Counted from the first letter of the stretch, positions 1 through 60,462 are shown. The stretch is 64,000 nt of DNA from an uncultured bacterium (GCA_943788935.1 CALSSE010000016.1:1759-65758), one strand, 5' to 3'. The notes: generated by a model from the letters alone, not told the origin. Numbers and translations are program-made.

Positions 1-3000
1 GGGCCAGGTCGTTGTCATCATCAGGATCCCCTGCGTCACAAAGACCATCGGTATCGAAGTCTACCCCGTCGTTGGCGACATCAAAGGTGCCGTTGGCGCA
101 ATCATCACAGGTATCGGCATCAGTGTCAGAGCAGACATTTGGATCATTGTCGTCGCTGTCATCGGCATCTAGCGCATTATCGTTGTCGTCATCAGGGTCA
201 CCGGCATCACAGAGGCCATCGGTGTCGAAATCTACTCCGTCATTGGCAGGATCAAAACTACCGTTAGTGCAGTCATCACAGGTGTCAGCGTCAGTATCAG
301 AGCAGACATTAGGATCATTACTATCGCTGTCGTCTCCGTCTAATGAGCCATCATTATCGTCATCAGGGTCACCTGCATCGCAGAGACCATCGCCTTCGAA
401 GTCTACCCCGTCGTTAGCTGGGTCAAAGGTGCCATTGACACAGTCATCACAGGTGTCGGCGTCGGTGTCAGAGCAGACGTTGGGATCATTATCATCGCTG
501 TCATCGGCGTCCAATGAACCATCATTGTCATCATCAGGGTCGCCGGCATCACAGAGGCCATCGCCTTCGAAGTCGGCACCATCATTGGCAGGATCAAAGG
601 TACCATTGATGCAGTCATCACAGGTATCAGCGTCGGTGTCAGAGCAGACATTTGGATCATTGTCGTCGCTGTCATCAGCGTCGAGAGCGCCGTCATTGTC
701 ATCGTCGGGGTCGCCGTCGTCACAGAGGCCATCGGTATCGAAGTCCACACCATCGTTGGCTGGGTCGAAGGTCCCGTTGGCGCAGTCATCACAAGCATCT
801 GTATCGGTGTCAGAGCAGACATTTGGATCATTGTCGTCGCTGTCATCGGCATCTAGCGCGTTGTCGTTGTCATCATCAGGATCCCCTGCGTCACAAAGAC
901 CATCGGTATCGAAGTCTACCCCGTCGTTGGCAGGATCGAATGTCCCGTTACTACAATCATCACAGGTATCGGCATCAGTGTCAGAGCAGACATTTGGATC
1001 ATTGTCGTCGCTGTCATCGGCATCTAGCGCGTTGTCGTTGTCATCATCAGGGTCCCCAGCATCACAGAGGCCATCGGTGTCGAAATCTACTCCGTCATTG
1101 GCAGGATCAAAGCTACCGTTAGTGCAGTCATCACAGGTGTCAGCGTCGGTATCAGAGCAGACATTTGGATCATTATCATCGCTGTCATCTCCGTCTAATG
1201 AACCGTCGTTGTCATCATCAGGGTCACCTGCATCGCAGAGACCATCGCCTTCGAAGTCTACCCCGTCGTTCGCTGGATCAAAGGTGCCATTGACACAGTC
1301 ATCACAGGTGTCGGCGTCGGTGTCAGAGCAGACGTTCGGGTCATTGTCATCGCTGTCATCAGCGTCTAGAGCGCCGTCATTGTCATCGTCGGGATCGCCA
1401 TTGTCACAGAGTCCATCGGTATCGAAGTCCACACCGTCGTTGGCAGGATCAAAGGTACCATTGATGCAGTCGTCACAGCTGTCAGCGTCAGTGTCAGAGC
1501 AGACGTTGGGATTATTGTCATCGCTGTCATCAGCGTCGAGAGCGCCGTCATTATCATCGTCAGGATCACCGTCGTCACAGAGGCCATCGGTATCGAAGTC
1601 TACCCCGTCGTTAGCAGGGTCGAAGGTGCCGTTAGCGCAGTCATCACAGCTGTCCGTATCGGTGTCAGAGCAGACGTTGGGGTTATTATCATCGCTGTCG
1701 TCAGCATCTAAAGCGAGGTCGTTGTCATCATCAGCGTCGCCATCATCACAAGCACCATCACCATCGAAGTCTACCCCGTCATTGGCAGGATCGAATGTCC
1801 CGTTACTACAATCATCACAGGTATCGGCATCAGTGTCAGAGCAGACATTTGGATCATTGTCGTCGCTGTCATCGGCATCTAGCGCGTTGTCGTTGTCATC
1901 ATCAGGGTCCCCAGCATCACAGAGGCCATCGGTGTCGAAATCTACTCCGTCATTGGCAGGATCAAAGCTACCGTTAGTGCAGTCATCACAGGTGTCAGCG
2001 TCGGTATCAGAGCAGACATTTGGATCATTATCATCGCTGTCATCTCCGTCTAATGAACCGTCGTTGTCGTCATCTGGATCGCCTGCATCGCAGAGACCAT
2101 CGCCTTCGAAGTCTACACCGTCATTGGCAGGATCAAAGGTGCCATTGACACAGTCATCACAGGTGTCGGCGTCGGTGTCAGAGCAGACGTTCGGGTCATT
2201 GTCATCGCTGTCATCAGCGTCTAGAGCGCCGTCATTGTCATCGTCGGGATCGCCATTGTCACAGAGTCCATCGGTATCGAAGTCCACACCGTCGTTGGCA
2301 GGATCAAAGGTACCATTGATGCAGTCGTCACAGGTGTCAGCGTCAGTGTCAGAGCAGACGTTGGGATTATTGTCATCGCTGTCATCAGCGTCGAGAGCGC
2401 CGTCATTATCATCGTCAGGATCACCGTCGTCACAGAGGCCATCGGTATCGAAGTCTACCCCGTCGTTAGCAGGGTCGAAGGTGCCGTTAGCGCAGTCATC
2501 ACAGCTGTCCGTATCGGTGTCAGAGCAGACGTTGGGGTTATTATCATCGCTGTCGTCAGCATCTAAAGCGAGGTCGTTGTCATCATCAGCGTCGCCATCA
2601 TCACAAGCACCATCACCATCGAAGTCTACCCCGTCATTGGCAGGATCGAATGTCCCATTACTACAATCATCGCAGGTATCACTATCAGTGTCAGAGCAGA
2701 CATTTGGATCATTGTCATCGCTGTCATCGGCATCAAGCGCGTTGTCGTTGTCATCATCAGGGTCTCCGGCATCACAGAGGCCATCGGTGTCGAAATCTAC
2801 TCCGTCATTGGCAGGATCAAAACTACCGTTAGTGCAGTCATCACAAGTGTCAGCGTCGGTATCAGAGCAGACATTTGGATCATTATCATCGCTATCATCT
2901 GCGTCTAATGAACCGTCGTTGTCATCATCTGGATCACCTGCATCGCAGAGACCATCGCCTTCGAAGTCTACCCCGTCGTTCGCTGGGTCAAAGGTGCCAT

Positions 3001-5650
3001 TGACACAGTCATCACAGGTGTCAGCGTCGGTGTCAGAGCAGACGTTCGGATCATTGTCATCGCTGTCGTCAGCGTCTAGAGCGCCGTCATTGTCATCATC
3101 AGGATCACCGGCATCACAGAGCCCATCCCCCTCGAAATCCACACCGTCGTTGGCGGGATCAAAGGTACCGTTGACGCAGTCATCACAGGTGTCGGCGTCG
3201 GTATCAGAGCAGATATTTGGATCGTTGTCATCGCTGTCATCAGCGTCTAGAGCGCCGTCATTATCATCGTCAGGGTCACCGTTGTCACAGAGCCCATCGG
3301 TATCGAAGTCTACTCCGTCGTTAGCGGGATCAAAGGTCCCGTTGGCGCAGTCATCACAGGTATCCGTATCGGTGTCAGAGCAGACGTTGGGGTTATTATC
3401 ATCGCTGTCATCAGCATCGAGAGCGAGGTCATTGTCATCATCAGGATCCCCTGCATCACAAAGACCATCGGTATCGAAGTCTACCCCGTCGTTGGCAGGA
3501 TCGAAGGTCCCGTTACTACAATCATCACAGGTGTCAGTATCGGTGTCAGAGCAGACATTTGGATCATTGTCATCGCTGTCATCGGCATCTAACGCGTTGT
3601 CGTTGTCATCATCAGGGTCCCCAGCATCACAGAGGCCATCGGTATCGAAATCAAACCCATCATTGGCGAGGTCGAAGCTGCCATTAGTGCAGTCATCACA
3701 GGTGTCAGCGTCATTGTCAGAGCAAACAGTCGAATCATTATCATCGCTGTCATCGGCGTCCAATGAACCATCATTGTCGTCATCAGGGTCACCTGCATCG
3801 CAGAGGCCATCGCCTTCGAAGTCTACCCCGTCGTTAGCTGGGTCAAAAGTGCCATTGACACAATCATCACAGGTGTCAGCGTCGGTGTCAGAGCAGACGT
3901 TCGGGTCGTTATCATCGCTGTCATCAGCGTCCAATGAACCGTCGTTGTCATCATCAGGGTCACCGGCATCACAGAGACCATCTCCCTCGAAGTCCACACC
4001 GTCGTTAGCGGGATCAAAAGTACCGTTAACACAATCGTCACAGGTGTCAGCGTCGGTGTCAGAACAGACATTTGGATCATTGTCATCGCTGTCATCAGCG
4101 TCGAGAGCGCCGTCATTGTCATCGTCGGGGTCGCCGTCATCACAGAGCCCATCGGTATCGAAGTCTACGCCGTCGTTGGCAGGATCAAAGGTGCCATTAG
4201 CGCAGTCATCACAAGAGTCTGTATCGGTGTCAGAGCAGACATTTGGATCATTATCATCGCTGTCATCAGCGTCGAGGGCTAGGTCGTTGTCATCATCAGG
4301 ATCCCCTGCATCACAAAGACCGTCAGTATCGAAGTCTACCCCGTCGTTGGCAGGATCGAATGTCCCATTACTACAATCATCGCAGGAATCAGTATCGGTG
4401 TCAGAGCAGACATTCGGGTTGTTATCGTCACTATCATCCGTATCGAGAGAACCATCGTTATCATCATCGGTGTCGCCCGCATCACAAATTCCATCACTGT
4501 CAAAGTCGGCGCCATCGTTCGCTATATCGAAAGTACCGTTAGAGCAGTCATCACAGGTGTCGCCGTCGTTATCAGAGCAAACATTTGGATTATTACCATC
4601 GCTGTCATCAGCATCGAGAGACCCATCATTGTCATCATCGGGATCACCGGCATCACATAAGCCATCTCCTTCGAAATCGACTCCGTCATTAGCCGGGTCA
4701 AAGGTACCATTGACACAGTCTTCACAGGTGTCAGCGTCGGTGTCAGAGCAGACGTTCGGGTCATTATCATCGCTGTCATCGGCGTCCAATGAACCGTCAT
4801 TGTCATCATCGGGATCACCGGCATCACATAAGCCATCTCCCTCGAAATCTGCTCCATCGTTAGCTGGGTCAAAGGTGCCGTTGACACAGTCATCACAGGT
4901 GTCAGCATCGGTGTCAGAGCAGATGTTTATATTATTGTCATCGCTGTCATCGGCATCGAGAGCGCCGTCATTGTCATCATCGGGGTCACCATCGTCACAG
5001 AGACCATCAGTATCGAAGTCTACTCCATCGTTAGCAGGGTCGAAGGTACCGTTGGCGCAGTCATCACAAGCATCTGTATCGGTATCTGAGCAGACATTGG
5101 GGTTATTATCATCGCTGTCGTCAGCGTCGAGGGCATTATCATTGTCATCATCTGGATCACCGGCATCACAGAGACCATCGGTGTCGAAATCAGCCCCGTC
5201 GTTGGCAGGATCGAATGACCCGTTACTACAATCATCGCAGGTGTCAGCATCGGTGTCAGAGCAGATGTTTGGATCATTGTCATCGCTGTCATCGGCATCG
5301 AGAGAACCATCGTTGTCATCATCGGTATCGCCCGCATCACAGATTCCATCATTGTCGAAGTCTGCGCCATCATTCGCTATATCGAAGGTGCCATTAGCGC
5401 AGTCATCACAGGTATCGCCGTCGTTATCAGAGCAGACATTTGGATCATTATCATCGCTGTCATCAGCATCGAGAGACTCATCATTGTCGTCATCGGGATC
5501 ACCGGCATCACAGAGGCCATCGGTATCGAAATCAGCTCCGTCGTTAGCGGGGTCAAATGTGCCACTGGTACAGTCATCACAGGTATCTGCATCACTATCT
5601 GAACAGGTGTTTGGATCATTGTCATCGCTGTCATCAACATCGAGAGAGCC
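1..5650 (-). repeat. Near-perfect tandem array of a 171-bp (57-aa) unit, ~33 copies, with 855-bp (5-unit) higher-order periodicity; encodes Asp-rich TSP3-like Ca-binding modules
   Basis: Spurious track ORFs 1366..1587 and 2221..2442 are virtually identical and lie 855 nt apart. Likewise 1795..1977 vs 2650..2832 and the tail of 652..1122 (at 940) are spaced 855 nt. The plus-frame translation shows a 57-aa period (SSSGSPASQRPSVSKSTPSLAGSK...). Confidence 0.85.
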
Positions 5651-8600
5651 ATCATTGTCATCATCGAGATCTTCGACGGCGTCTTGGCATCCATCACCGT
5701 CAAAGTCTGTATTTGCTGCAGATGGGCCCCATGCTAGATCTCCCTTGGCACAGTCGTCATTGCCATTGGTCACCCCATCATTGTCATCATCATTATCTTC
5801 GGTAGAGTCACGGCAACCATCGGTGTCATAATCTTCAGCGGCGTCTGAGATCCATCCAGTCTCACCGGTCGCACATTGGTCAGCGGTGTCACTGATACCA
5901 TCATTGTCATCATCTAGATCTTCGGGGTCGCTGTCCCGGCAACCATCTTGATCATGATCTTCAGCAATATCTGATGAGTCCCAGCCGGTGACACCTGAAG
6001 GACACTGGTCTACGGTATCAAGAGAGCCATCATTGTCATCATCAAGGTCCTCTGTTGCGTCTTCACAACCATCGGCATCATTATCATTGGCGAGCGCTGA
6101 GGGCCCCCAACCGAGGTTTCCTTTACGACAAAGGTCATCGGTATCTAGAACGCCATCGTTATCATCATCGGTCTCCTCGGGATGATCATCTTTACACCCG
6201 TCGCTATCGTAGTCAGTCACTCCGTTGGAGGTCCAACCTGTCTCTCCATTGGGACAGAGGTCGTTAATATCAACAATACCATCAGCGTCAGCATCTTCGA
6301 CACAGACTGACGGTTCACCGGTACAGACCGAACCAGGCTCAACAGCGCATCCCGCAGAGCAACCATCTCCAAAGGCCGTGTTTCCATCATCACAGGTCTC
6401 AAAGCCTGGGTCGCCGAGGTTAAGCCCAACACGGATGATCCCGTCGCCACAAACGGCAGCGATGCAGCCGGCCTTACAGCCATCTTTATCACTGGCGTTT
6501 CCGTCATCACACTCCTCGAAGAGTAGATCACCGATGTTAAGGTCTGTTCGCTGTACACCATCGCCGCAGGTGGCGAATAAACAGTTGTTGAGGCAAGCAT
6601 CATCATCTTGACCATTGGCGTCATCACACTGTTCATTGGAGTCGACAACGTTATCTCCACAGCCAGACGCTTCACAATTAGAGCGACAAGCGTCAGGGAG
6701 GAAGTCACTGTTATTGAAGCTATCATCACAAGTCTCATTAGCGGTGAGATTTAAGATTCCATCTCCACACACGCTAGAGCTACAGTCTGCGTTACAGACG
6801 GCGCTCTCTCCACTGTCATCACAATCTTCACTCGCGGATGCATTTGTGATCCCATCACCACAAATAGAGGGGCTACAGTCAGCGTTACAGGTGGCGCTCT
6901 CCCCTCCATCATCACAAGACTCACCAGAAGCGGTGTTGACGATACTATCTCCGCAGGAGGAGAAGGAGCAATTAGCGTTACAGGTGAGCGTATTTACTCC
7001 ACCTTCGTCGCAATCTTCACCAAACTGAACGACTCCATTGCCACAGAACTCGATGCCACAGGCAGAGTCACAGCCATCTCCGTCAGCAGTGTTTCCATCA
7101 TCACATTCTTCTGCTCCTTGTTGTACGCCATTACCGCAGACCTCAGGGGTACAGGTAGAGTCACAGCCATCACCAGCGACAGTATTTCCATCATCGCAGG
7201 TCTCGTAGGCGCCAGGTGTAGGTGTGCCTTGTCCAAAGGAGTTGTCACCCCAGCAGACGATTTGGTTATTAAAGTCAACTGCACATGAATGGGTAAACCC
7301 AACATCGACGCTGATGAATGGACCGGCGGGAGCGTTGAGTTGACCATCAAAGTTATCACCCCAGCAGATGACGTCATCATTGGTGTCACGAGCACAAGTG
7401 TGGGAGAAGTGAGAGGCGACCTCTACATAGTTACCTGCAGGCGCATCACATTGCCCAAAGTCATTGTTACCCCAGCAATCGATCGCGCCTGTTGTTGAGA
7501 GCGCACAGGTGAAGTTACCGCCAGCGCTGAGGTCTGTATATGTTCCAGCTGGAGCGTTGAGCTGGCCTTGATCATTGTCACCCCAGCATTCAATGGTGCC
7601 ATTGTCTGTGACCGCGCACCCATGGAGCGATACGAAGTCCCCACCGATTGCCACTCGAGAGAAGGCACCTACAGGAGGGTCAGGGAAGATTCCAAAACCA
7701 TAATCCATCTCACCCCAACAGATGAGATCTCCATTTAATTGAACACCACAAGTTTGGTCCATCAGTCCTGGGCTGACATCCACCATGAGAACGTTAGGAG
7801 GCTCTGCTTGATTGAGGTCATTCGCTCCCCAACACTCTACTTCGTTAAGGGTGCCGATCGCGCAGGCATGAGCGCTACCAATCTCCATATGGCTGAATTG
7901 GCCCTCTGGTTTGCTCTTGGTGGCGTTAACCCCGACGAGGGTTTCACCCCAACAATTGATATAGTCGTCAGTCATGATACCGCAGCTCTGAGCCGAGCCA
8001 CCAGAGACGTTAAGGTAACGTCGTTCATAGGTCTGAATAACCCCATTACCGCACTCTTCGATGACGCATAAGTCATCACAGCCATCAGAGATACCTACGT
8101 TCCCATCATCACACTGCTCACCGGTGTCGATGACGCTATCTCCGCATGCGGGGACTTGGCAACTGATGCGACATGCATCGGGGGCAGTATCGCTGTTGTT
8201 AGCTCCATTATCACAGAACTCACCGGAGTCTTGTACACCGTCACCACAAAAAGCGACTTGGCAGCTCGTACGACAACCATCTACAGCGTTATCATCGTTA
8301 CCTGCGCCTAAATCACAGCCCTCACTACTGTCTTGAATACCGTCTCCACAAGAGGCGATTTGACAGCTTGTGCGGCAAGCATCGGCGAGAGTGTCGGAAT
8401 TATTGAGTCCATCATCACACCCCTCGCCGGGATCTGTGACCCCGTCACCGCAGCCGGGGAGCTGACAATTCGTGCGGCAAGCGCCAGGGTTGAGGTCGTT
8501 ATTATTGATACCATCGTCACAGCTCTCAGTTCCCTGAATGACGCCATCACCACAGATTTGCTCTTCACAGTTGTTATTACAGCCATTGTTGTCATCTTGA

Positions 8601-9943
8601 TCACCATCATCACAATCTTCTCCGAGGTGGGCTTGAATTACACCATTCCCACACTCTTCCACGAAGCAGTTCTCATCACAGCCATCATTGTTCGTGGTAT
8701 TTCCATCATCACAGGTCTCACCAATTGAGCCTTGAAGCACTCCATTGCCACAGATCTCTTCGTTGCAGTTGAGATCACAGCCGTCACCGTTCAGAGCATT
8801 CCCATCATCACAAGACTCACCGAATTGTAGCACTCCATTCTGACAAACCTCGTCAATACAAGACTCATCGCAGCCGTCACCGACATCTAGGTTGCCATCA
8901 TCGCACTCTTCAGAGCCTTGGAGTAGTCCGTTGCCACATTCGAGCAAACAAGAGGCACCGCAACCATCATTATCTTGACGGTTCCCGTCGTCACACTGCT
9001 CATAATCATCAAGTACCCCATCACCGCAGGTTAAACGAGAGGCGATACGGAAGCCGACATAGACCTCTTCCTGCCTGAAGTTTAATCGCTGACGATATAG
9101 AGCAGTGGAGCGACTCGGAGCTAACGACCAACCACCACCTCTCACCACGCGGAAACGATTACCTGTCGAGCCGATATAGGGAGTCCCATCAGTGGGCTGA
9201 ACGTTATATCCCTGTTGATACCAGTCGGCGGTCCACTCAGCGGCGTTACCGATGAGGTCGCATATCCCCTGATCACTATCACCGTCTAGGAAGGTTGGGA
9301 GGTTAACCTGATCGGTGTGACTTCGAGAACAGACTGGTGAGGTCGAGAGCTGACCACATCCAAAAGAGCCATCTTTGAGAATCGCTCGATCACAGCTGCT
9401 CGCCTCATCTCCCCATGGGTAAAGCTGATCTTGGCCTTGACTTCGAGCAGCATATTCCCATTGAGCTTCACTGGGGAGAGAGAGTGTGTTTACGGTGTCT
9501 TTTTGGTTGAGCCAATCGCCGAATTCTACCGCTTGAGACCAACTCAAACAGTTGACTGGGTGAGTCTCCCGTCCGGCTCTTCCCCAGTTACAGAATGTAC
9601 CAACTTTAGGCTCTGAACAGACACCCTCATCAACACACGCTTGGTATTGATAAATGGTAATCTCAGCCCTTGAGAGACTAAAGTTTTCTATGGTCACTAA
9701 TTTGAGAGGTCTCGCTGCACTATCAGAGCTATCTCCGCGAAGATAGACGCCTCCCGATAGTGGGACGAGCTCGATTGTACTGTCGAGCTCGCAGGTGCTT
9801 GAACAACCATCTCCTTCTCTGGTGTTTCTATCATCACAAGTCTCGGGTGGTGTGATGACCCCATCTCCGCACAGAGGTGCTTGTGCATAGACACTGAATG
9901 GGCTTAAGAGAAGGGTAAGCGCGATCAACGGTGAGTAGCGCAT
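1..9943 (-). CDS. Giant secreted multidomain repeat protein, 3'-partial (>3,300 aa in window; C-terminus lies beyond position 1). Order: signal peptide, FGE/SUMF1-like domain, Myxococcus-type Cys-rich repeats, RCC1-like repeats, more Cys-rich repeats, TSP3-like Ca-binding repeats, then a ~33x 57-aa D-rich tandem array
   Basis: Hand translation of the minus strand from ATG (rc of cat at 9941-9943) gives MRYSPLIALTLLLSPFSVYAQAPLCGDGVITPPETCDD... An SD-like GGGAGA sits 4 nt upstream. The FGE-like block carries the RVVRGGGWSLAPSRS motif. About 23 units of the CGDGx(5-8)ExCDDGNx(3-6)DGCx(3)C form follow, plus ~7 repeats of the ..C.......G.I.CWGDNxxGQ (RCC1) form. The frame then stays open through DxDxDGxxDxxDxC repeats to position 1 (...SLDADDSDDNDPNVCSDTDADTCDDCANGTFDVANDGVDFDTDGLCDAGDPDDDND...). 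The track omits this ORF because it has no stop inside the window. Confidence 0.85.
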   Translation of the reverse strand, partial: MRYSPLIALTLLLSPFSVYAQAPLCGDGVITPPETCDDRNTREGDGCSSTCELDSTIELVPLSGGVYLRGDSSDSAARPLKLVTIENFSLSRAEITIYQYQACVDEGVCSEPKVGTFCNWGRAGRETHPVNCLSWSQAVEFGDWLNQKDTVNTLSLPSEAQWEYAARSQGQDQLYPWGDEASSCDRAILKDGSFGCGQLSTSPVCSRSHTDQVNLPTFLDGDSDQGICDLIGNAAEWTADWYQQGYNVQPTDGTPYIGSTGNRFRVVRGGGWSLAPSRSTALYRQRLNFRQEEVYVGFRIASRLTCGDGVLDDYEQCDDGNRQDNDGCGASCLLECGNGLLQGSEECDDGNLDVGDGCDESCIDEVCQNGVLQFGESCDDGNALNGDGCDLNCNEEICGNGVLQGSIGETCDDGNTTNNDGCDENCFVEECGNGVIQAHLGEDCDDGDQDDNNGCNNNCEEQICGDGVIQGTESCDDGINNNDLNPGACRTNCQLPGCGDGVTDPGEGCDDGLNNSDTLADACRTSCQIASCGDGIQDSSEGCDLGAGNDDNAVDGCRTSCQVAFCGDGVQDSGEFCDNGANNSDTAPDACRISCQVPACGDSVIDTGEQCDDGNVGISDGCDDLCVIEECGNGVIQTYERRYLNVSGGSAQSCGIMTDDYINCWGETLVGVNATKSKPEGQFSHMEIGSAHACAIGTLNEVECWGANDLNQAEPPNVLMVDVSPGLMDQTCGVQLNGDLICWGEMDYGFGIFPDPPVGAFSRVAIGGDFVSLHGCAVTDNGTIECWGDNDQGQLNAPAGTYTDLSAGGNFTCALSTTGAIDCWGNNDFGQCDAPAGNYVEVASHFSHTCARDTNDDVICWGDNFDGQLNAPAGPFISVDVGFTHSCAVDFNNQIVCWGDNSFGQGTPTPGAYETCDDGNTVAGDGCDSTCTPEVCGNGVQQGAEECDDGNTADGDGCDSACGIEFCGNGVVQFGEDCDEGGVNTLTCNANCSFSSCGDSIVNTASGESCDDGGESATCNADCSPSICGDGITNASASEDCDDSGESAVCNADCSSSVCGDGILNLTANETCDDSFNNSDFLPDACRSNCEASGCGDNVVDSNEQCDDANGQDDDACLNNCLFATCGDGVQRTDLNIGDLLFEECDDGNASDKDGCKAGCIAAVCGDGIIRVGLNLGDPGFETCDDGNTAFGDGCSAGCAVEPGSVCTGEPSVCVEDADADGIVDINDLCPNGETGWTSNGVTDYDSDGCKDDHPEETDDDNDGVLDTDDLCRKGNLGWGPSALANDNDADGCEDATEDLDDDNDGSLDTVDQCPSGVTGWDSSDIAEDHDQDGCRDSDPEDLDDDNDGISDTADQCATGETGWISDAAEDYDTDGCRDSTEDNDDDNDGVTNGNDDCAKGDLAWGPSAANTDFDGDGCQDAVEDLDDDNDGSLDVDDSDDNDPNTCSDSDADTCDDCTSGTFDPANDGADFDTDGLCDAGDPDDDNDESLDADDSDDNDPNVCSDNDGDTCDDCANGTFDIANDGADFDNDGICDAGDTDDDNDGSLDADDSDDNDPNICSDTDADTCDDCSNGSFDPANDGADFDTDGLCDAGDPDDDNDNALDADDSDDNNPNVCSDTDTDACDDCANGTFDPANDGVDFDTDGLCDDGDPDDDNDGALDADDSDDNNINICSDTDADTCDDCVNGTFDPANDGADFEGDGLCDAGDPDDDNDGSLDADDSDDNDPNVCSDTDADTCEDCVNGTFDPANDGVDFEGDGLCDAGDPDDDNDGSLDADDSDGNNPNVCSDNDGDTCDDCSNGTFDIANDGADFDSDGICDAGDTDDDNDGSLDTDDSDDNNPNVCSDTDTDSCDDCSNGTFDPANDGVDFDTDGLCDAGDPDDDNDLALDADDSDDNDPNVCSDTDTDSCDDCANGTFDPANDGVDFDTDGLCDDGDPDDDNDGALDADDSDDNDPNVCSDTDADTCDDCVNGTFDPANDGVDFEGDGLCDAGDPDDDNDGSLDADDSDDNDPNVCSDTDADTCDDCVNGTFDPANDGVDFEGDGLCDAGDPDDDNDGSLDADDSDDNDSTVCSDNDADTCDDCTNGSFDLANDGFDFDTDGLCDAGDPDDDNDNALDADDSDDNDPNVCSDTDTDTCDDCSNGTFDPANDGVDFDTDGLCDAGDPDDDNDLALDADDSDDNNPNVCSDTDTDTCDDCANGTFDPANDGVDFDTDGLCDNGDPDDDNDGALDADDSDDNDPNICSDTDADTCDDCVNGTFDPANDGVDFEGDGLCDAGDPDDDNDGALDADDSDDNDPNVCSDTDADTCDDCVNGTFDPANDGVDFEGDGLCDAGDPDDDNDGSLDADDSDDNDPNVCSDTDADTCDDCTNGSFDPANDGVDFDTDGLCDAGDPDDDNDNALDADDSDDNDPNVCSDTDSDTCDDCSNGTFDPANDGVDFDGDGACDDGDADDDNDLALDADDSDDNNPNVCSDTDTDSCDDCANGTFDPANDGVDFDTDGLCDDGDPDDDNDGALDADDSDDNNPNVCSDTDADTCDDCINGTFDPANDGVDFDTDGLCDNGDPDDDNDGALDADDSDDNDPNVCSDTDADTCDDCVNGTFDPANDGVDFEGDGLCDAGDPDDDNDGSLDGDDSDDNDPNVCSDTDADTCDDCTNGSFDPANDGVDFDTDGLCDAGDPDDDNDNALDADDSDDNDPNVCSDTDADTCDDCSNGTFDPANDGVDFDGDGACDDGDADDDNDLALDADDSDDNNPNVCSDTDTDSCDDCANGTFDPANDGVDFDTDGLCDDGDPDDDNDGALDADDSDDNNPNVCSDTDADSCDDCINGTFDPANDGVDFDTDGLCDNGDPDDDNDGALDADDSDDNDPNVCSDTDADTCDDCVNGTFDPANDGVDFEGDGLCDAGDPDDDNDGSLDGDDSDDNDPNVCSDTDADTCDDCTNGSFDPANDGVDFDTDGLCDAGDPDDDNDNALDADDSDDNDPNVCSDTDADTCDDCSNGTFDPANDGVDFDTDGLCDAGDPDDDNDNALDADDSDDNDPNVCSDTDTDACDDCANGTFDPANDGVDFDTDGLCDDGDPDDDNDGALDADDSDDNDPNVCSDTDADTCDDCINGTFDPANDGADFEGDGLCDAGDPDDDNDGSLDADDSDDNDPNVCSDTDADTCDDCVNGTFDPANDGVDFEGDGLCDAGDPDDDNDGSLDGDDSDSNDPNVCSDTDADTCDDCTNGSFDPANDGVDFDTDGLCDAGDPDDDNDNALDADDSDDNDPNVCSDTDADTCDDCANGTFDVANDGVDFDTDGLCDAGDPDDDNDLA
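7213..8023 (-). other. RCC1-like (regulator of chromosome condensation / beta-propeller blade) repeat region, ~7 repeats
   Basis: Repeated blocks such as HACAIGTLNEVECWGANDLNQAEPP, CAVTDNGTIECWGDNDQGQLNAPAG and CALSTTGAIDCWGNNDFGQCDAPAG in the translated minus strand. Confidence 0.6.
9031..9781 (-). other. FGE/sulfatase-modifying-factor-like (formylglycine-generating-enzyme fold) domain of the giant protein
   Basis: Motifs YLRGDS, GTFCNWGR, NLPTFLDGD and RVVRGGGWSLAPSRSTALYRQR lie at aa ~55-305 of the translated minus strand. Family assignment is by motif recall only. Confidence 0.6.
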
Positions 9944-10182: not shown

Positions 10183-11034
10183 ATGAGTACCATCGATCAA
10201 TTTGAGAGCGTTTTCCGTTCAGCGATCAAGCCATCCTACGACCCTCAACCTCTCTCTATCTCAAAAATTTTGTGGGTGAGCGATTTGGATGAACAAGACG
10301 CTGAACCCTACGCTCGGGCCTGCCAAGAGTATTTAACGGACGCTGGCTCAGATCTTATCGGCGAGGTATCTATCCTACCGAAAGAGCTGAGTCATGACTT
10401 AAATACTCTGATCGAAGAGATCTCTAAGCGTTCGCCAGACCTTATAGTCACCCATAGAAATTTACACTCAGATGCCTCTTTTGGGTACACTCTTGGTGAT
10501 CACATAGAGGTTCTTACTCAAGTCACTCATGTGCCTATCCTGTTGTGTCCTCATCACAGCCATTGGCGAGCAGAGCTGCTAGGGGCACCGAAAAAGGTGA
10601 TGGTATTAACAGACCAGTTGAGCGCTAACCCTGTCCTTATAGATGCTGCGCTCTCGCTAGTGAGAGATCAAGGACAGATCACTCTCGCCCATATTGAAGA
10701 TGAGTCTCAATTTAATCGATTCATCGACAGCATTTCAAAGATCCCTGAGCTCGATACAGAGATCGCTCGCAGCTCAATTCAAGCTCAGCTATTTAAGGAG
10801 ACAGAAGATTTTGTTGAGGCGATCAAGACCGCGCTCCTAGAGAAACAGAGAGAGGTTACAGTTCACTCCGAGATCCAAATGGGTCACACATTACGCACTT
10901 ATGTTTCCATGGTAGAGGTTCATCAAATCGACATGGTCGTGATGCAGAGTAAAGTAGAAGATCAGGTCGCTATTCATGGTCTCTCATATCCGCTCGCTGT
11001 TGAGTTAAATCAACTCCCCATGCTGATATTATAA
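10183..11034 (+). CDS. Hypothetical protein, possibly tandem universal-stress-protein-like (USP-like) fold
   Basis: 283-aa ORF with a strong RBS (GGAAGGAG). Weak resemblance to the USP C-terminal pattern (…VHQIDMVVMQSK…LSYPLAVELNQLPMLIL). Confidence 0.4.
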   Translation: MSTIDQFESVFRSAIKPSYDPQPLSISKILWVSDLDEQDAEPYARACQEYLTDAGSDLIGEVSILPKELSHDLNTLIEEISKRSPDLIVTHRNLHSDASFGYTLGDHIEVLTQVTHVPILLCPHHSHWRAELLGAPKKVMVLTDQLSANPVLIDAALSLVRDQGQITLAHIEDESQFNRFIDSISKIPELDTEIARSSIQAQLFKETEDFVEAIKTALLEKQREVTVHSEIQMGHTLRTYVSMVEVHQIDMVVMQSKVEDQVAIHGLSYPLAVELNQLPMLIL

Positions 11035-11073: not shown

Positions 11074-12588
11074 ATGAGTGATCATCGCGCTCAGTCATTC
11101 CAAAGAACACTAGGATATTACTTTATGATCAATCTCATCTCTATTCTAAATCCAAGCGCAGCGCAGGCTGTCCATAAGGTAGTAGAGCATCACGTTGCCC
11201 ACCACCCTCCCGAGGCTTGGGTGACATACCTCTTTACAGCCCTCTTAGTAGGGCTCATTTTCTGTCTCGCCTTCGAAGAGAAAATCCACGCCCAAAAGTC
11301 GGTGATCGCTAGCTCCTTTGCCTTAATGGGGCTCGCTTTAGGAACCTTCTTTGACATACTCCCTTTTGGTCCGGAAGCGGCATCAAAGGGAGCAGCGCCG
11401 ATGATCAATCACTTTGGAGAGACCCTCTTCCATCCGGTCTTTATTCAGGGGGTCGACTGGGGAGTGATCGCGATTATCTTTGGAGCGAGTCTATTTGTCG
11501 ATATCACCTCCAAGTCAGGACTCTTTACTTGGATCGCTTTGAAGCTCACTAAGTCTTCGGGCGGTAATCCTCTTAAACTACTGTGGGCTTATGGGGTGAT
11601 GACCGTCGTCTTTAGCGCAGTATTAAACAATGTGACAGCGATGATTATCGTTGGCTCATTGTCTGTGGTCTCTCTAGAGAAGCTCAGCCGACGAGACCTA
11701 TTACTTGGGTTTTTACTCATCGAAGGTCTCTTAACCAATGTGGGTGGATTGCTTACCCTCATCAGCTCTGTCCCGAACATTATCGTCGGGACTGCTGCCG
11801 GGATCTCTTTTGGTCGATTCTTTGTGATCGCCGCTCCTTTTGTCCTTGTCACGACAGCGGTGACTCTGTGGCTAGGAGCAAAGATGTTCAAGATCACTGG
11901 ATTTGAATCAGAGCACCAAGAAGTAGAGGGTCGGAGACTCGTGGCCCAATTTGATGAGTCAGAGGGTATCGAGAGCCGTGGGTTCTTCATTTTTTCTTCG
12001 GTAATGACGATCTGTTTCGTGTTTACCATCGCACTCGCTTCTATGATTCCCGGTCTCAATAAATTAGGGATGGCCTATGTGGCGCTACTGTTTGCGGGGA
12101 TTATGATGCTCAAGTTTAAGTCGAGCGCGAGTGAGTTTTATAAGTCAATCGACTGGGACTTACTCGGTTTCTTTGTAGCGCTCTTCGCCTTTATTAACGT
12201 TTTGGAGCATGCTCACGTACTCGCTTTAATCGGTCAAGGTTTAAGTCACATCATAAACTTAGGGGAGACCCTTGGTGGGGCATCACTGCTGGTCAGCGCT
12301 TCGGTGTTTAGCTCGGTGACCGACAACATTCCATTGGCAGCGATGCTAGCGAAGATCCTCAACGCCCAACAGACTGCCGGAGATAGCTCTTTGTGGTGGT
12401 CGGTGATCTTTGGCGCTAACCTTGGGGGGAATATTACTCCTATTGGTTCAGCATCTACTTTGGTAGCGGTCACTATGATGCATAAACATAAGCTCCCCAT
12501 GAGCTTCTCTGGTTTTGTGATAAGAGCTGTTCCCTTTGCGATCGTTCAAATTATTTTAGCGATTATTTATGTATCGCTCTTTGTTTGA
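11074..12588 (+). CDS. ArsB/NhaD/CitMHS-superfamily anion/cation permease
   Basis: 504-aa polytopic membrane protein. Contains the ANLGGNITPIGSASTLVAV motif typical of the ArsB/NhaD permease superfamily. The internal duplication fits the two-repeat topology. Confidence 0.65.
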   Translation: MSDHRAQSFQRTLGYYFMINLISILNPSAAQAVHKVVEHHVAHHPPEAWVTYLFTALLVGLIFCLAFEEKIHAQKSVIASSFALMGLALGTFFDILPFGPEAASKGAAPMINHFGETLFHPVFIQGVDWGVIAIIFGASLFVDITSKSGLFTWIALKLTKSSGGNPLKLLWAYGVMTVVFSAVLNNVTAMIIVGSLSVVSLEKLSRRDLLLGFLLIEGLLTNVGGLLTLISSVPNIIVGTAAGISFGRFFVIAAPFVLVTTAVTLWLGAKMFKITGFESEHQEVEGRRLVAQFDESEGIESRGFFIFSSVMTICFVFTIALASMIPGLNKLGMAYVALLFAGIMMLKFKSSASEFYKSIDWDLLGFFVALFAFINVLEHAHVLALIGQGLSHIINLGETLGGASLLVSASVFSSVTDNIPLAAMLAKILNAQQTAGDSSLWWSVIFGANLGGNITPIGSASTLVAVTMMHKHKLPMSFSGFVIRAVPFAIVQIILAIIYVSLFV

Positions 12589-12640
12589 ATCGCGCTCTGT
12601 TTGAATCGCGCTCTGTTTGAATCGCGCTCTGTTTGAGTGT
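12579..12640. repeat. Intergenic 17-nt direct repeat x3 (gaatcgcgctctgtttg) between convergent genes; the first copy overlaps the permease stop codon
   Basis: tttgaatcgcgctctgtttgaatcgcgctctgtttgaatcgcgctctgtttgagtg read directly. Confidence 0.8.
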
Positions 12641-12643
12641 AAC

Positions 12644-13573: not shown

Positions 13574-13604
13574 GTGTATCGCTTTCTGTCTGATCGGTCT
13601 CTCT

Positions 13605-13652
13605 CTAGTTAGTCTCTGTGTTAGTCAGTCTCTGTCTAGTCAGTCTCTGTCT
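13605..13652. repeat. Intergenic tandem repeat (~16 nt, tagtcagtctctgtc x3) immediately upstream of argB
   Basis: tagttagtctctgtgttagtcagtctctgtctagtcagtctctgtctta. Confidence 0.75.
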
Positions 13653-18003: not shown

Positions 18004-19059
18004 TTAGAACTTTGAGATATCTTCTGAGACATCTTCTGAGACATCTTCTGAGACATCTTCTGAGACATCTTCTGAGACATCTTCTGAGACATCTTCTGAG
18101 ACAGAGACAAACTTATCCATACTCAGCGTCTGCTCTCCATCCCACCGGTAAGCGGCAAGCTCTCCACCTTTAGCGATACTCCAGTCTGTACATGCTACCT
18201 TATGGGTAGGGAGACATGAGCTTCTACTCCGCCAATAATGACCAAAGAAAACCGGAGGAGAGTCTTTGTAGAGGATCGTTTGACCTTCTGTAATCGTGTC
18301 CTCAAGGTCAAGTCCATAAATATCACGGCTCCCAAAGATGCCTACCTCAGCCCATGTTTCGCCTTCTGTCCACCAAGCGACTCGACATTGGGTCCGCTTG
18401 ATCCCTGATTTATCTTTAAAGTGTGTCCCCTCTGGCATCTTGAGCTCTGGACCTTTTAATAATAACTCAACGGTCTTAAAGGCCTCGTGCTCGGGCGTAA
18501 ACAATTCATGACTGAATTCATTTCCCAGGATCATCCCTTGGGGGGAGGGATAGAGATACTGTGAGACTCTCTCTATGGACTCTTGATCCCAACAAGCATG
18601 GATGACTCGCGCGGTCCCACCGCCCTCTAGCTGAAGTTCAAGCCAAAGAGGGAGCGTTTTGAACCAAGCGATCATCTCCTCATGTGCTGAACTACCGAGG
18701 GGTAGCTCCTCAAGGAATGAGGCGTGTTGGTGTTGATTTTTGCGGGAATGAGGACGTAGATAGGCACCTGATTCTGTCTGTGTTGAGTAGGCGACCGCGT
18801 TGAGCTCATGATTTCCCATACAGATATCTGCGCAATCTGCCTCGACCATCTCTCTCACGATTTGACAGGTCTCTCGTTGCTTTGGACCTCGGTCTATAAG
18901 ATCGCCAACGAAGATCGCTCGGCGTGTGGGGTGAGACCAATGGCCATGGTCTCGGTGATAACCTAACCTCTTCAAGAGGAGGATGAGGGCGTCAGCATGT
19001 CCATGGATATCTCCGATGATATCAAAGCCTTTGGCGATGGAGATGTTATTGTGCGACAT
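18004..19059 (-). CDS. Calcineurin-like metallophosphoesterase (ApaH/PrpE-like Ser/Thr or diadenosine-polyphosphate phosphatase) with C-terminal (SEDV)x7 repeat tail
   Basis: GDIHGH...VGDLIDRGP...GNHE metallophosphoesterase motifs. C-terminus is VSEDVSEDVSEDVSEDVSEDVSEDVSEDISKF, encoded by a perfect 12-nt x7 repeat at ~18016-18102. Confidence 0.8.
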   Translation of the reverse strand: MSHNNISIAKGFDIIGDIHGHADALILLLKRLGYHRDHGHWSHPTRRAIFVGDLIDRGPKQRETCQIVREMVEADCADICMGNHELNAVAYSTQTESGAYLRPHSRKNQHQHASFLEELPLGSSAHEEMIAWFKTLPLWLELQLEGGGTARVIHACWDQESIERVSQYLYPSPQGMILGNEFSHELFTPEHEAFKTVELLLKGPELKMPEGTHFKDKSGIKRTQCRVAWWTEGETWAEVGIFGSRDIYGLDLEDTITEGQTILYKDSPPVFFGHYWRSRSSCLPTHKVACTDWSIAKGGELAAYRWDGEQTLSMDKFVSVSEDVSEDVSEDVSEDVSEDVSEDVSEDISKF

Positions 19060-20018: not shown

Positions 20019-20110
20019 ATTGTTTATCCCTATAGATGGAGAGGTGTAAAGAGTCGGTCACAAATCAGAGTTAGCGGCTCTGAATCAGAGTGAGGGGCGC
20101 TGAATCAGAG

Positions 20111-21598
20111 TCAGGGGAGTGGGTGAGGCGAGGCGCGGAGAGCTGACTCCACACCACCGGTTTTGACCCAGAGCTCTCGCCACTCTTCTTGGGGGTCAGA
20201 ATCGGCTACGATCCCTCCACCGGCGTGATAAATTAAGTCTTGACGATCACGAAGAAGGGTACGAATGGGGAGATTGAGGTCTCCACCTCCGCAGGGGTCA
20301 AGATAGCCGAGAGCTCCACAGTATATCCCACGGGCTCCACTCTCCAAATGGCGGATGAGTTCCATAGACCTCATCTTTGGCGCACCAGTGACGCTGCCTC
20401 CAGGAAAGATGGCGGCTAAGATCTCTAAGAGACCATTGTGAGGGGAGAGCTCACCTCTGATGACGCTCACTAAGTGATGAACTGTAGCATAGCGTCGAGC
20501 CTCTCTATCCACGATGACCTCTACGCTACCGCTCTCACAGATTTGGCCAAGGTCATTACGCTCTAAATCTAAGATCATCACATGCTCGGCGGCGTCTTTT
20601 TCTGAGCTGATAAGCTCTTGACGCTCTGATTCATCAGCGCATGGGTCAGATCGGCGTGGCCGAGTCCCCTTGATGGGAGCGGTCTCTATGATTCGCTTTT
20701 GATGACAAAGGTCACCTAAACGACCGCTCCATTTGGCGAGTCTCTCAGGGCTGAGAGAGAGGATCGACCGATTCTCATCAATTATACATAAAGCGCTGAA
20801 CTGACCACCGTTCACTGAGCAGAGGTGTTGGAATAAGTAGGTCGAAGGAATCTCCCTCTGAAGCGTCGCTTTGAGGGGTATCGTCAGGTTCATTTGATAC
20901 ACATCACCACTCAAAACAGACTCTTGTAAACGGTTGAATCGCTCTAAATATTCTGTATAGCCGAGAGAGGGGCTGAACGCTTCTCTAATCCAAGTGACTT
21001 TCTCAGCGCCTGAGTCTTCACAAGTGAGGGGGTCATCACTGAGCTTGTGATGAGCGGTCAACAAGCGGTCTCTCAGTCGACCGAGCTTATCGAGTGAACA
21101 AGCGACCAACCAGCCTCGTTCGGAAGATCTATGATAAGCATAAATAGAGTGATAGCGTGCTGCCCAGAGACTCGGAGCGTTGTGATGTTGATCATGAGGC
21201 TCAATTCCCTTTGCCTGCGCTCCTAGCTCGTAGCTGAGACCACAATGAATCATCGGTGGGATGATCTGTAAGGTCTGGCCTAAGGAGAACCAAGCGGTAT
21301 CGGAGTACACCTGGCCAGTGTCACTACGCCATGGTTGATTGACGAAAGAATCAAAGCGAGCGAGCGCCTCTTCCTCTCGACCCTGGCTTTCATGAGGCTC
21401 TAATAGCATGACATCTTGTGGCTCTAGAGCGATAAAATCCCAATCACAATATTCTCCTGCCCCTTCTCGACCACTGTATAAGACGGAGTCCCCCTGAGAG
21501 AGAGAGAGGTGATGAAGCCATAAAATCGGAGAGCCTATGTCGAGAGCTTCGTAATAAGGGGCTCGGTCAGTGCTATCTAGATCAGCCAAGTTATCCAA
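20111..21598 (-). CDS. pabB: Chorismate-binding enzyme, aminodeoxychorismate/anthranilate synthase component I family
   Basis: C-terminal PGGSVTGAPKMRSMELI and the GxxxG..A.G.YCGA.GY pattern typical of TrpE/PabB. 495 aa. Cannot tell pabB from trpE without a partner gene. Confidence 0.75.
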   Translation of the reverse strand: MDNLADLDSTDRAPYYEALDIGSPILWLHHLSLSQGDSVLYSGREGAGEYCDWDFIALEPQDVMLLEPHESQGREEEALARFDSFVNQPWRSDTGQVYSDTAWFSLGQTLQIIPPMIHCGLSYELGAQAKGIEPHDQHHNAPSLWAARYHSIYAYHRSSERGWLVACSLDKLGRLRDRLLTAHHKLSDDPLTCEDSGAEKVTWIREAFSPSLGYTEYLERFNRLQESVLSGDVYQMNLTIPLKATLQREIPSTYLFQHLCSVNGGQFSALCIIDENRSILSLSPERLAKWSGRLGDLCHQKRIIETAPIKGTRPRRSDPCADESERQELISSEKDAAEHVMILDLERNDLGQICESGSVEVIVDREARRYATVHHLVSVIRGELSPHNGLLEILAAIFPGGSVTGAPKMRSMELIRHLESGARGIYCGALGYLDPCGGGDLNLPIRTLLRDRQDLIYHAGGGIVADSDPQEEWRELWVKTGGVESALRASPHPLP

Positions 21599-26985: not shown

Positions 26986-27885
26986 TTATCTAACCACCTT
27001 CTTGGCTCTTTTGCCCTTCTTGACTCGTTTGCCTTTAGCGGACTTATGAGCTCGCTTGGTCGCTCTTTTCCCTTTGCGAGAACCTTTTTTCACCGCTCGC
27101 TTGCCTGACTTTCCACTAAATCGAAAGACACGAGAGATCTTACGACGAGCTTTCATCTTGCCCTTCACTGTCTTGGTTTGTCCTCCACTCTTAAGAGTGA
27201 CTTTATATGGCCCAGCGGGGATTATGAAGGGTTTAGCCTGCTTGGCCTTAATCGAGCCGCGTTTCTTACCATTGATGATGACTGTCGCTGCCTTATTGGA
27301 CATAGCGACAAAGACCCCAAGGTTCTTTTTCTTTTGAGACGTCTCGGTAGGCTTAGCCGTGGGCTTTGGAGCGGGCTTTGGAGCGGGCTTAACCGTGGGC
27401 TCAGCGACGGGCTCAGCGACGACGGGTTTAGCGACAGGCTCAGCGACGGGTTTAGCGACAGGCTCAGCGACGGGTTTAGCGACAGGCTCAGCGACGACGG
27501 GTTTAGCGACAGGCTCAGCGACGACGGGTTTAGCGACAGGCTCAGCGACGACGGGTTTAGCGACGGGCTCAGCGACGGGCTCAGCGACGGGCTCAGCGAC
27601 GGGCTCAGCGACGGGCTCAGCGACGGGCTCAGCGACGACGGGTTTAGCGACAGGCTCAGCGACGGGTTCAGGCTCAATATCAATACCCTCTTGGGCTAAG
27701 ATCTTCGCTAATTCTTCTTCGGAGAGCGCTGTCTCTTCACCTTCGACAACATTGGCCTCGGTGGTGTCATCATCAAATGTAAACTCATCTGCGAAGGCAG
27801 TTGAGGATAAACTGAGCAGTAATATAAATGATAGACAACCGCTGAAGAACGGTCGACATTGAATGTTGGGTATTAGGCGCATCAA
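26986..27885 (-). CDS. Secreted protein with (PVAE/PVAK)n Pro-Val-Ala-rich tandem repeats, a PEGA-like beta domain and a Lys/Arg-rich C-terminal tail
   Basis: Signal peptide (MMRLIPNIQCRPFFSGCLSFILLLSLSSTAFA). ~30 copies of PVAEPVAKPVVAE. ATVIINGKKRGSIKAKQAKPFIIPAGPYKVTLKSGG resembles a PEGA domain. Tail is KKGSRKGKRATKRAHKSAKGKRVKKGKRAKKVVR. Overlapping ORFs on both strands in this region are repeat artefacts. Confidence 0.65.
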   Translation of the reverse strand: MMRLIPNIQCRPFFSGCLSFILLLSLSSTAFADEFTFDDDTTEANVVEGEETALSEEELAKILAQEGIDIEPEPVAEPVAKPVVAEPVAEPVAEPVAEPVAEPVAEPVAKPVVAEPVAKPVVAEPVAKPVVAEPVAKPVAEPVAKPVAEPVAKPVVAEPVAEPTVKPAPKPAPKPTAKPTETSQKKKNLGVFVAMSNKAATVIINGKKRGSIKAKQAKPFIIPAGPYKVTLKSGGQTKTVKGKMKARRKISRVFRFSGKSGKRAVKKGSRKGKRATKRAHKSAKGKRVKKGKRAKKVVR

Positions 27886-39241: not shown

Positions 39242-39439
39242 AGCTCTCCTTCGGAGATGATCGAATATGGAACAGATAAAGATGGTGGGGCAGAGTGAAC
39301 GAAAACATATGGAGGGTCAAGTGCTTGAGCGTCTTAGATGAGGCAATCTCCATGACCATACGTTTCAGAGTTGAGCTTTGACTTCATTCACAGTTAAGAT
39401 ACTCCCACCTCTCAAATAACCGAGCTAAAGTGTTGAGGA

Positions 39440-39472
39440 CAATTGACATGAAAACAATTGACATGAAAACAA
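39440..39472. repeat. 15-nt direct repeat x2 containing two TTGACA hexamers (acaattgacatgaaa) upstream of the liu-like cluster; candidate promoter/operator duplication
   Basis: acaattgacatgaaaacaattgacatgaaaacaacgtgtatgaaa read directly. Confidence 0.3.
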
Positions 39473-47862: not shown

Positions 47863-48783
47863 GTGATATTGATGGTCCGACTGCACAGCGCTTGCTTGAT
47901 CATATGTCTAGCGGTAGTGAGCTCTCGAGCAGCTCTGTGTTATGCTGAGGTGTCAGGCTTAGTGACCTCACCTTCACCTCAACAGGATATTGTCTCATAT
48001 AAGGACTGGTCTTTGGTTTTAAGCGTGGTGGTCGATAAACAGGGTAAAGTCTATTATCCGCGCTTCTTTGAGCCTAAGGTCAGACAAGCCTTCTCTCGTT
48101 TCTTGACTCTCTTAGAAGAGCCGCTACCAGCGGGCTATAGCAAAGAGGCTGAGATGAGTTATTGGCTCAACGCTTATAACGCACTTACCATGCGTCATGT
48201 CCTACGGTTTCCAGGGCTCGAGAGCGTGGCGATCGCCGTCAAAGGAGAGCCACGATATACTTTTTTTAAGCAGCGAGTTCATCTTGTTGGAGGAGAGAAA
48301 CGCTCTTTGGATGACATAGAGCATCAGCTGATCAGGCCTCGATTTAAGGACCCTAGAGTTCATATGGCGTTGAACTGCGCTTCTAAGTCATGTCCAGTCA
48401 TAACGAATATCCCTTTTATGGCGCAAACGCTCGATCAACAGTTAGACCATCTCGCAAGTAAGTTTGTTAATGATCCCTCACGTAATCAACTTAGATCTAC
48501 GTCAAGTCCAACATTACTGCGGCTCTCTAAACTCTTCTCGTGGTTTGGTGAGGATTTTAAATATCCCCTCAGCGTGGATGCTGTCGGTGATCGTACTGTT
48601 GGTGATCGCACTGTTGGTGATCGCACTGTCGACATTGAGAGAGGAGTCAAAGCATTTTTATGTAAGCATAGTGAGCTCAATATGTCGCTCATTGAAGACA
48701 GTCATATTCAATATCTAGAGTATGATTGGAGACTCAACGGTGTCCCGCCCGGGCACCATTGGACTAAGGACAAGCACGAATAG
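47863..48783 (+). CDS. DUF547-family protein with in-frame (VGDRT)3 repeat
   Basis: Signal-like N-terminus. YWLNAYNALTMRHVL...HMALNCASKSCP...FVNDP match DUF547 conserved blocks. 15-nt x3 repeat at 48583..48630. Confidence 0.6.
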   Translation: MILMVRLHSACLIICLAVVSSRAALCYAEVSGLVTSPSPQQDIVSYKDWSLVLSVVVDKQGKVYYPRFFEPKVRQAFSRFLTLLEEPLPAGYSKEAEMSYWLNAYNALTMRHVLRFPGLESVAIAVKGEPRYTFFKQRVHLVGGEKRSLDDIEHQLIRPRFKDPRVHMALNCASKSCPVITNIPFMAQTLDQQLDHLASKFVNDPSRNQLRSTSSPTLLRLSKLFSWFGEDFKYPLSVDAVGDRTVGDRTVGDRTVDIERGVKAFLCKHSELNMSLIEDSHIQYLEYDWRLNGVPPGHHWTKDKHE

Positions 48784-60424: not shown

Positions 60425-60462
60425 CTCTTGACGAATCCTTGACGAATCCTTGACGAATCCTT
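60425..60462. repeat. Intergenic 12-nt tandem repeat x3 (ccttgacgaatc) downstream of uppP
   Basis: ccttgacgaatccttgacgaatccttgacgaatccttgattg. Confidence 0.8.

Follow-up and report, generated by a model that had tools for sequence, protein, structure and literature searches.

A stretch of 64,000 nucleotides from an uncultured bacterium (GCA_943788935.1 CALSSE010000016.1:1759-65758), called the window in the following, was analysed regarding a tandem array at its start and the giant minus-strand gene in which this array lies. A single array was reported by Tandem Repeats Finder (TRF) at 8..5665 with a period of 171 bp, 33.1 copies, 80% matches and 0% indels. A repeat-family search besides TRF gave 20 redundant families in the array and no added information. 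The array is cut by the window start; hence, the number of 33 units and the array length are lower bounds. Proteins of the window are recorded on a contig of up to 67,791 bp, the probable source contig, of which at most 3.8 kb would fall outside the window. On the minus strand one frame is open from 9952 to 2 over 3,317 codons, without a stop before the window start. The C-terminus of the encoded protein lies beyond the window, and the codon count is thus a minimum. The following features were located in this gene:

2..9943, minus strand: giant open reading frame (ORF) of at least 3,314 codons from the ATG at 9943 (open frame, translation, Pfam/NCBIfam domains)
9878..9943, minus strand: predicted Sec signal peptide MRYSPLIALTLLLSPFSVYAQA, read by eye from the translation
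9041..9772, minus strand: FGE-sulfatase (SUMF1-like) domain, amino acids (aa) 58-301 (PF03781, E=6.4e-35, 121.5 bits)
7226..7900, minus strand: RCC1-like beta-propeller with four RCC1 repeats, aa 682-906 (RCC1_2, E=2.8e-31)
5648..6295, minus strand: about five Asp-rich units of 42-44 aa, 'DYDSDGCKD..DDDNDG..D.C..G..GW', preceding the main array (translation)
5..5647, minus strand: 33 complete units of 171 bp or 57 aa, perfectly in phase (TRF, unit list)

Cysteine-rich acidic repeats (TIGR02232 / DUF4215) lie on either side of the RCC1 propeller. In the N-terminal part of the protein, referred to as the head, TIGR02232 matched 11 stretches with 149 bits (cut-off 20.8) and DUF4215 (PF13948) seven stretches with 49.1 bits (cut-off 27). 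Homologues occur by the thousands in Myxococcota and in marine metagenome-assembled genomes (MAGs). The nearest orthologue (P0001) is 62% identical across the whole head. After its first Asp-rich units, P0001 continues with cadherin/VCBS-like repeats of about 100 aa instead of the 57-aa units. Since the same head is combined with different repeats in this protein, the repetitive part may serve as a stalk that can be exchanged, with the head being conserved.

The array is the coding sequence of the repetitive 3' part of a giant, extremely acidic secreted protein. The consensus of the 57-aa unit is [AS]LDADDSDDNDPNVCSDTDADTCDDCxNGTFDPANDGVDFDxDGLCDAGDPDDDNDG, and 'CSD' is spaced every 57 aa, 33 times in the array translation. 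Asp accounts for 37.8% of the residues; Lys, Arg and His are absent, and the 132 Cys correspond to four invariant Cys per unit. Variation among the units was 0.088, 0.074 and 0.431 at codon positions 1, 2 and 3 of the minus frame. The proportions of synonymous and nonsynonymous differences (pS/pN, Nei-Gojobori) were 0.736/0.070 for adjacent units and 0.401/0.032 for units five positions apart (lag 5; lags are counted in units unless base pairs are given). Because of this codon-position bias and these pS/pN values, the minus frame is under strong purifying selection. A Ser/Leu/Pro-rich ORF of 1,939 codons on the plus strand (12..5831) was rejected as an antisense artefact that stems from the repeat composition: pN/pS was 0.126-0.143 in the frame of this ORF but only 0.024-0.057 in the minus frame, and recognised domains and homologues were found on the minus strand only. 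Gene callers could choose this antisense ORF over the true minus-strand gene.

The original prediction had described the array as a source of spurious ORFs that recur 855 nt apart. The quoted pairs are present: 1366..1587 and 2221..2442 on the minus strand with 73 aa each, and 1795..1977 and 2650..2832 on the plus strand with 60 aa each; the copy quoted at 940 is located within the plus-strand ORF 652..1122. All of them are spurious, being off-frame or antisense relative to the real frame. The array itself could not be upheld as a non-coding source of such ORFs, as one minus frame is open over its whole length and continuous with protein domains. The spacing of 855 nt, i.e. five units, was found to be a property of the array as a whole.

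Ungapped self-identity of the stretch 1..5665 was 0.800 at 171 bp, 0.788 at 342 bp, 0.784 at 513 bp, 0.800 at 684 bp, 0.896 at 855 bp and 0.799 at 1026 bp. Thus, the autocorrelation that had been proposed as a check gave a stronger signal at 855 bp than at 171 bp. At the further multiples of 855 bp identity was 0.864 (1710 bp), 0.847 (2565 bp), 0.839 (3420 bp) and 0.822 (4275 bp), and the five multiples of 855 were the top five among all lags from 1 to 4499. In the unit-by-unit matrix the nearest relative lay at a multiple of five units for 30 of the 33 units. When the unit order was shuffled, none of 20,000 shuffles reached the observed excess of lag-5 identity over the identity at lags 1-4 (0.103; sd 0.0086). 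Mean similarity was 0.861 for units within a class and 0.790 between classes. The array shows the properties of a higher-order repeat (HOR): the monomers are arranged head-to-tail, the multimer copies are more alike than the monomers and the monomer types follow in a fixed order. The higher-order structure of 5 x 171 = 855 bp is real and far beyond chance. Six complete 855-bp blocks (347..5476) and a partial seventh (346..5) were delimited, and within them the following features:

5476..4622, minus strand: HOR block 1, units 2-6
4621..3767, minus strand: HOR block 2, units 7-11
3766..2912, minus strand: HOR block 3, units 12-16
2911..2057, minus strand: HOR block 4, units 17-21
2056..1202, minus strand: HOR block 5, units 22-26
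1201..347, minus strand: HOR block 6, units 27-31
927..2636, minus strand: tandem duplication of precisely one 855-bp block as the youngest event (927-1781 and 1782-2636)
2069..2129, minus strand: 60-bp patch with eight of the nine differences between the young copies, partner 1214-1274 (assembly comparison)

The period of five is most pronounced where the protein sequence is not affected. Identity at third codon positions was 0.76 at lag 5, compared with 0.54-0.56 at lags that are not multiples of five, and it fell to 0.70, 0.67, 0.65 and 0.60 over lags 10-25. Since selection on the protein cannot create synonymous similarity, the period of five can be attributed to common descent of whole blocks. 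The strength of the signal at synonymous sites indicates block duplication, not five selected protein types. Neighbouring unit types are saturated at synonymous sites, and HOR copies other than the young pair have a mean synonymous difference of about 0.40.

In the block identity matrix, blocks 4 and 5 reached 0.974, compared with 0.82-0.91 for all other pairs. Over 927-1801, 866 of 875 positions matched at a lag of 855 bp, and the exact runs in this stretch measured 287, 204 and 322 bp. This footprint therefore points to a tandem duplication of one block, its length being as expected for 855 bp. Outside the young duplication lag-855 identity drops to about 96% and then to about 85%; these zones mark older nested events. 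The duplication of whole five-unit blocks on top of the 171-bp period, as originally predicted, was thus confirmed by the third-position excess at lag 5 and by one block pair of about 99% identity. A recent expansion, which had also been proposed, holds for this one pair; the other blocks are 9-18% diverged. All of the array but the young block is old and is maintained by purifying selection.

Contigs of other assemblies were found by exact look-up of the neighbouring proteins; the distal end of the array was seen in none of them. Contig_23412 (32 kb, ENA ERZ10646689) is colinear with 667-18067 of the window with 99.8% identity and crosses the array gap-free. It contains the same 29 units in the same order with the same young duplication, but it may share reads with the assembly of the window. 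The predicted assembly hazard is evident: contig_15444 (ENA ERZ10646634) stops within the array at window position 3921, a Logan short-read contig (ERR9769289) with 100% identity to the window breaks off at 5505 after 160 nt of the array, and the start of the window itself falls inside it. The alignment of a SPAdes contig (ENA ERZ10646140) reaches down to 6030, which is upstream of the array, and leaves 110 nt at the contig end unaligned. The predicted copy-number polymorphism was not observed, as no unit was gained or lost between contig_23412 and the window over the 29 units compared.

Contig_23412 and the window differ at six clustered sites (2069, 2081, 2117, 2123, 2126 and 2129) in the 60-bp patch. 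At these sites contig_23412 has the base of the copy 855 bp away, so that its young copies are identical at 872 of 875 positions. Two readings of the patch are possible, a gene-conversion tract that is polymorphic or ambiguous polishing of paralogous copies. Over its last 430 nt, contig_15444 has 92.8% identity to the colinear sequence of the window (units 9-11). Since 21 of the 25 substitutions are at third codon positions, this end represents a different coding copy, which stems from a variant strain or from sequence outside the window. A gene call of 3,130 aa on contig_23412 was rejected as a shorter allele; it ends at an off-frame TGA (window position 242) and is more probably explained by a frameshift. 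Between 9568 and 11205, contig_23412 has nine single-base insertions compared with the window. Because of these insertions the contig is regarded as noisy and its gene lengths as untrustworthy. They also split a Usp-like gene (window 10183..11034, plus strand) into a call of 124 aa.

Several other explanations of the array were considered. A non-coding, satellite-like array is mimicked by the 171-bp period and the multimeric HOR, both known from alpha satellite, and by the many short spurious ORFs in other frames. It was refuted by the tests run and has next to no probability: the open frame of 3,317 codons is continuous with recognised domains, variation is strongly biased towards third positions, G+C is 0.51-0.53, no CENP-B-box-like match was found in the array, the neighbouring genes argB, htpX, pabB and lepA are bacterial, and the 57-aa unit is present in thousands of proteins. 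For a coding array, the five-unit period could be a super-repeat with a function in the protein, comparable to titin or nebulin. Five unit types would then each be kept by selection, as one structural turn or binding surface would be made of five units. Such selection, however, does not reach synonymous third positions, where the excess at lag 5 is much larger (0.76 vs 0.55) than in the protein. The decay of identity with distance (0.896 to 0.822) and the block pair of about 99% identity speak for a duplication history, and no period of five was seen in the inspected relatives with the 57-aa unit. A super-repeat is thus improbable, even though identity at codon positions 1 and 2 also peaks at lag 5 (0.963 vs about 0.91), amino-acid identity at this lag is 0.944 compared with 0.86-0.88 at others, and the unit order is conserved across all six blocks.

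An artefact of assembly could also account for the higher-order pattern or for no more than its youngest duplicate, by false duplication or by mis-joined reads of several strains or of a simpler array. The second assembly, which comes from a different ENA analysis with possibly shared reads, has 29 units colinear with the window, the young duplicate among them. Indels amount to 0%, the frame is intact over 5.6 kb, and the differences between blocks are overwhelmingly synonymous, unlike errors or chimeras. These results make an artefact very improbable. Weighed against them are the breaks of other assemblies at the array and the start of the window inside it, the 60-bp patch differing between assemblies exactly at paralogous sites, and the 7% divergent version of units 9-11 at the end of contig_15444. 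Duplication of five-unit blocks within a coding sequence is the explanation preferred here.

A mechanism for the block duplication is suggested by the distribution of exact matches. Exact runs of at least 30 bp were counted at lags 5, 10 and 15 (24, 19 and 10 runs, respectively), with 0-3 at any other lag; the longest run was 322 bp at lag 5 vs 74 bp at lag 1. RecA-dependent exchange requires a minimal stretch of exact identity. Because long exact matches, the substrate of recombination, are present almost only at lags 5, 10 and 15, misaligned exchange, slippage and gene conversion would be confined almost wholly to the five-unit register. Five old unit variants were duplicated jointly as 855-bp blocks, probably by in-register homologous recombination or by slippage between sister copies. 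Gains, losses and conversion would then proceed in steps of 855 bp (285 aa) with the frame kept, and each step would renew the higher-order pattern, resulting in a self-reinforcing register. Short conversion tracts may still be exchanged between copies, or are ambiguous to assemblers.

The 57-aa unit belongs to a large family. With a profile of 27 three-unit segments, 2,763 representative clusters were detected at E<=1e-3 and 298 at E<=1e-30. Clusters with the 57-aa unit have many architectures, including OmpA-type and other C-terminal domains. Ten relatives were inspected, five matches of the repeat search and the five best matches of the representative library; their units are fewer and about 55-86% identical, and none of the ten showed a period of five. 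The giant protein itself or a C-terminal continuation was not returned by two homologous-protein searches and the representative-library search. A scan of genome contigs with the head region gave no orthologue; all 74 loci match only the Asp-rich segment aa 1217-1439 with the 42-44-aa units and are mostly from Poseidoniales, some also from Myxococcota MAGs. The best matches of this segment are long genes of marine group II archaea (Poseidoniales) with up to 60% identity. Judged from these matches, the Asp-rich repeat type appears to be common to marine archaea and Myxococcota.

Coding arrays of related Asp-rich units, detected by TRF in other MAGs, have periods of 180, 126, 126 and 171 bp and 13-38 copies with indels. 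For these arrays TRF also gave the multi-unit periods 381, 765 and 336. Because of the indels, their ungapped lag profiles were uninformative, except for a weak rise in the first array listed:

L045, 10408..14338 (Deltaproteobacteria/Myxococcota MAG JACKFA010000001.1): period 180, weak identity rise at lags 5 and 10
L033, 9980..14801: period 126
L006, 2865..5979: period 126
L031, 10307..12512: period 171

Every unit of the array contains D-x-D-x-D-G-x-x-D-x-x-D, seen as DFDTDGLCDAGD, in addition to the four invariant Cys. This is the motif of thrombospondin type-3 calcium sites, and the unit may be called thrombospondin-type-3-like by motif only. The sole PDB match of the unit profile was the type-3 region of COMP (3fby) with E=0.052 and heavy composition bias; with phmmer no match of the five-unit block to PDB was obtained. 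The Pfam family TSP_3 matched one of the 27 aligned segments, which comes from another protein (E=0.0057). A weak Ephrin_rec_like match in Pfam covers the 'C..CDDCxxGxF' half of the unit. Calcium binding and an extended, rod-like extracellular stalk are predicted as the most likely properties. A canonical OmpA-TSP_3 protein of 690 aa is encoded in the same window (29414..31486, minus strand) and served as internal control; it contains a Pfam TSP_3 repeat (29.3 bits) as well as OmpA and SPOR domains. The adjoining gene (31491..35276, minus strand) encodes a protein of 1,261 aa with PKD and Big_9 domains, which may be another surface protein.

The neighbours of the giant gene are argB, htpX, pabB, lepA and a tRNA-Ala gene. 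LepA is 74-79% identical to MAG proteins named Myxococcota or Bradymonadia, and by these sequences the host is assigned to an uncultured marine Myxococcota bacterium. In general, it is quite probable that this marine Myxococcota bacterium encodes a giant secreted protein with a head and a stalk of at least 33 Asp-rich units with predicted disulfides, the latter shaped by duplication of 855-bp blocks in register. Several results weigh against parts of this interpretation. No match of Pfam TSP_3 to the whole protein or the five-unit block was obtained even at E up to 10, and when the unit profile was compared by hhalign with the OmpA-TSP_3 protein encoded in the window, the probability was 0.1%, i.e. 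no relationship. The AlphaFold2 model of three units, based on an alignment of 27 rows, was unusable (mean predicted local distance difference test score 48, predicted template modelling score 0.24). The C-terminus of the giant protein, and hence any anchor, is outside the window. Most HOR copies are 9-18% diverged, which argues for a largely stable array. The two assemblies crossing the array showed no difference in repeat number over the 29 shared units, and the differences between assemblies could be polishing errors and not biology. A further-reaching reading, with the 57-aa Asp-rich four-Cys unit as an uncatalogued extracellular repeat family (no Pfam/NCBIfam model) in a stalk of more than 33 units that changes its length only in quanta of 285 residues, because recombination is limited to the five-unit register by the synonymous divergence of neighbouring units, is regarded as rather unlikely. 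If true, stability of the repeats would be combined with stepwise length variation in a giant calcium- or mineral-binding surface protein.

Other tandem repeats were detected in the window. A 12-bp repeat (7.6 copies, 98% matches) occupies 18013..18103, at the 3' end of ORF 18004..19059 on the minus strand. Contig_15444 is without exactly one 12-bp copy (18019-18030), so that this in-frame coding repeat is length-polymorphic between assemblies. A 12/24-bp repeat with up to 21.7 copies (27361..27671) lies in an ORF of 299 aa (26986..27885, minus strand) with a weak PT-repeat match; several overlapping frames are open around it. Furthermore, short tandem repeats of 11-20 bp with 2-4.5 copies are found in intergenic gaps between convergent or divergent genes:

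12573..12636: intergenic short repeat
13585..13652: intergenic short repeat
20063..20117: intergenic short repeat
39439..39472: intergenic short repeat
48581..48629: intergenic short repeat
49134..49197: intergenic short repeat
60427..60464: intergenic short repeat

For annotation, the results mean that what looks like a 5.6-kb 'satellite' at a contig edge makes up two thirds of a giant gene. Such an array can be misread by gene callers as well as by repeat maskers, and MAG assemblies stop there. The locus is a clean bacterial case of a higher-order repeat within a coding sequence, in which synonymous sites separate the duplication history from selection on the protein. The location of the exact matches accounts for the evolution in five-unit steps that is expected of the array. 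Attention is also drawn to an acidic repeat module that has no name and is widespread in marine metagenomes. In Myxococcota this module is likely to act in calcium-dependent adhesion or in surface spacing. The array is a well-resolved coding higher-order repeat of an unnamed module; otherwise it is a fairly ordinary expansion of a repeat gene and overturns no current understanding.

Primate alpha satellite consists of A+T-rich, centromeric 171-bp monomers arranged in n-mer HORs, often with a CENP-B box. Comparable to alpha satellite, monomers of about 80% identity are found here in a fixed order, multimer copies reach 97-100%, and local homogenisation decays with distance. In contrast, the present array is coding, bacterial, under purifying selection, has a G+C of about 0.52 and comprises at least 5.6 kb instead of megabases. 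The two are unrelated in sequence, a CENP-B box is missing here, and the shared period of 171 bp is a coincidence.

In function, the giant protein can be likened to Periscope proteins and other giant repeat adhesins. Asp-rich motifs, apparently paired cysteines, a predicted extracellular location and long tandem runs in very large genes are shared with thrombospondin type-3 repeats (PF02412; TSP3_bac, PF18884), which are also known from bacterial OmpA-TSP3 proteins. Unlike these, the array units are missed by the Pfam models and have the additional half 'C..C-D-D-C-x-x-G-x-F'. In Omnitrophota, giant genes of the 'Dockerin-type', rich in thrombospondin-type-3 repeats, were reported to fragment assemblies (bioRxiv 10.1101/2023.11.21.568195). 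The N-terminal 1,200 residues belong to the Myxococcus cysteine-rich repeat and DUF4215 proteins (TIGR02232, PF13948), but these families describe the head and not the array.

Periscope proteins, among them SasG, Rib, Sgo_0707 and CdrA, are bacterial surface proteins of variable length with tandem, highly similar repeats; high DNA identity between the repeats was proposed to drive intragenic recombination, by which the length changes by whole repeats with the frame kept (PMC8201768). The mechanism suggested above for the array follows the same logic. The giant protein resembles them in being secreted, in its N-terminal functional head followed by a long tandem array and in being hard to assemble without long reads. 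No length variation between strains was observed here (two assemblies, 29 units). Adjacent units of the present array have only about 80% DNA identity, and the near-identical copies are five units apart and not adjacent; copies at this distance share 74-100% DNA identity, with 97.4% for the best block pair. In contrast to Periscope proteins, the repeated unit is a small acidic, Cys-containing module rather than one of the known globular domains of stalks; the host differs as well, being an uncultured bacterium of the marine Myxococcota.

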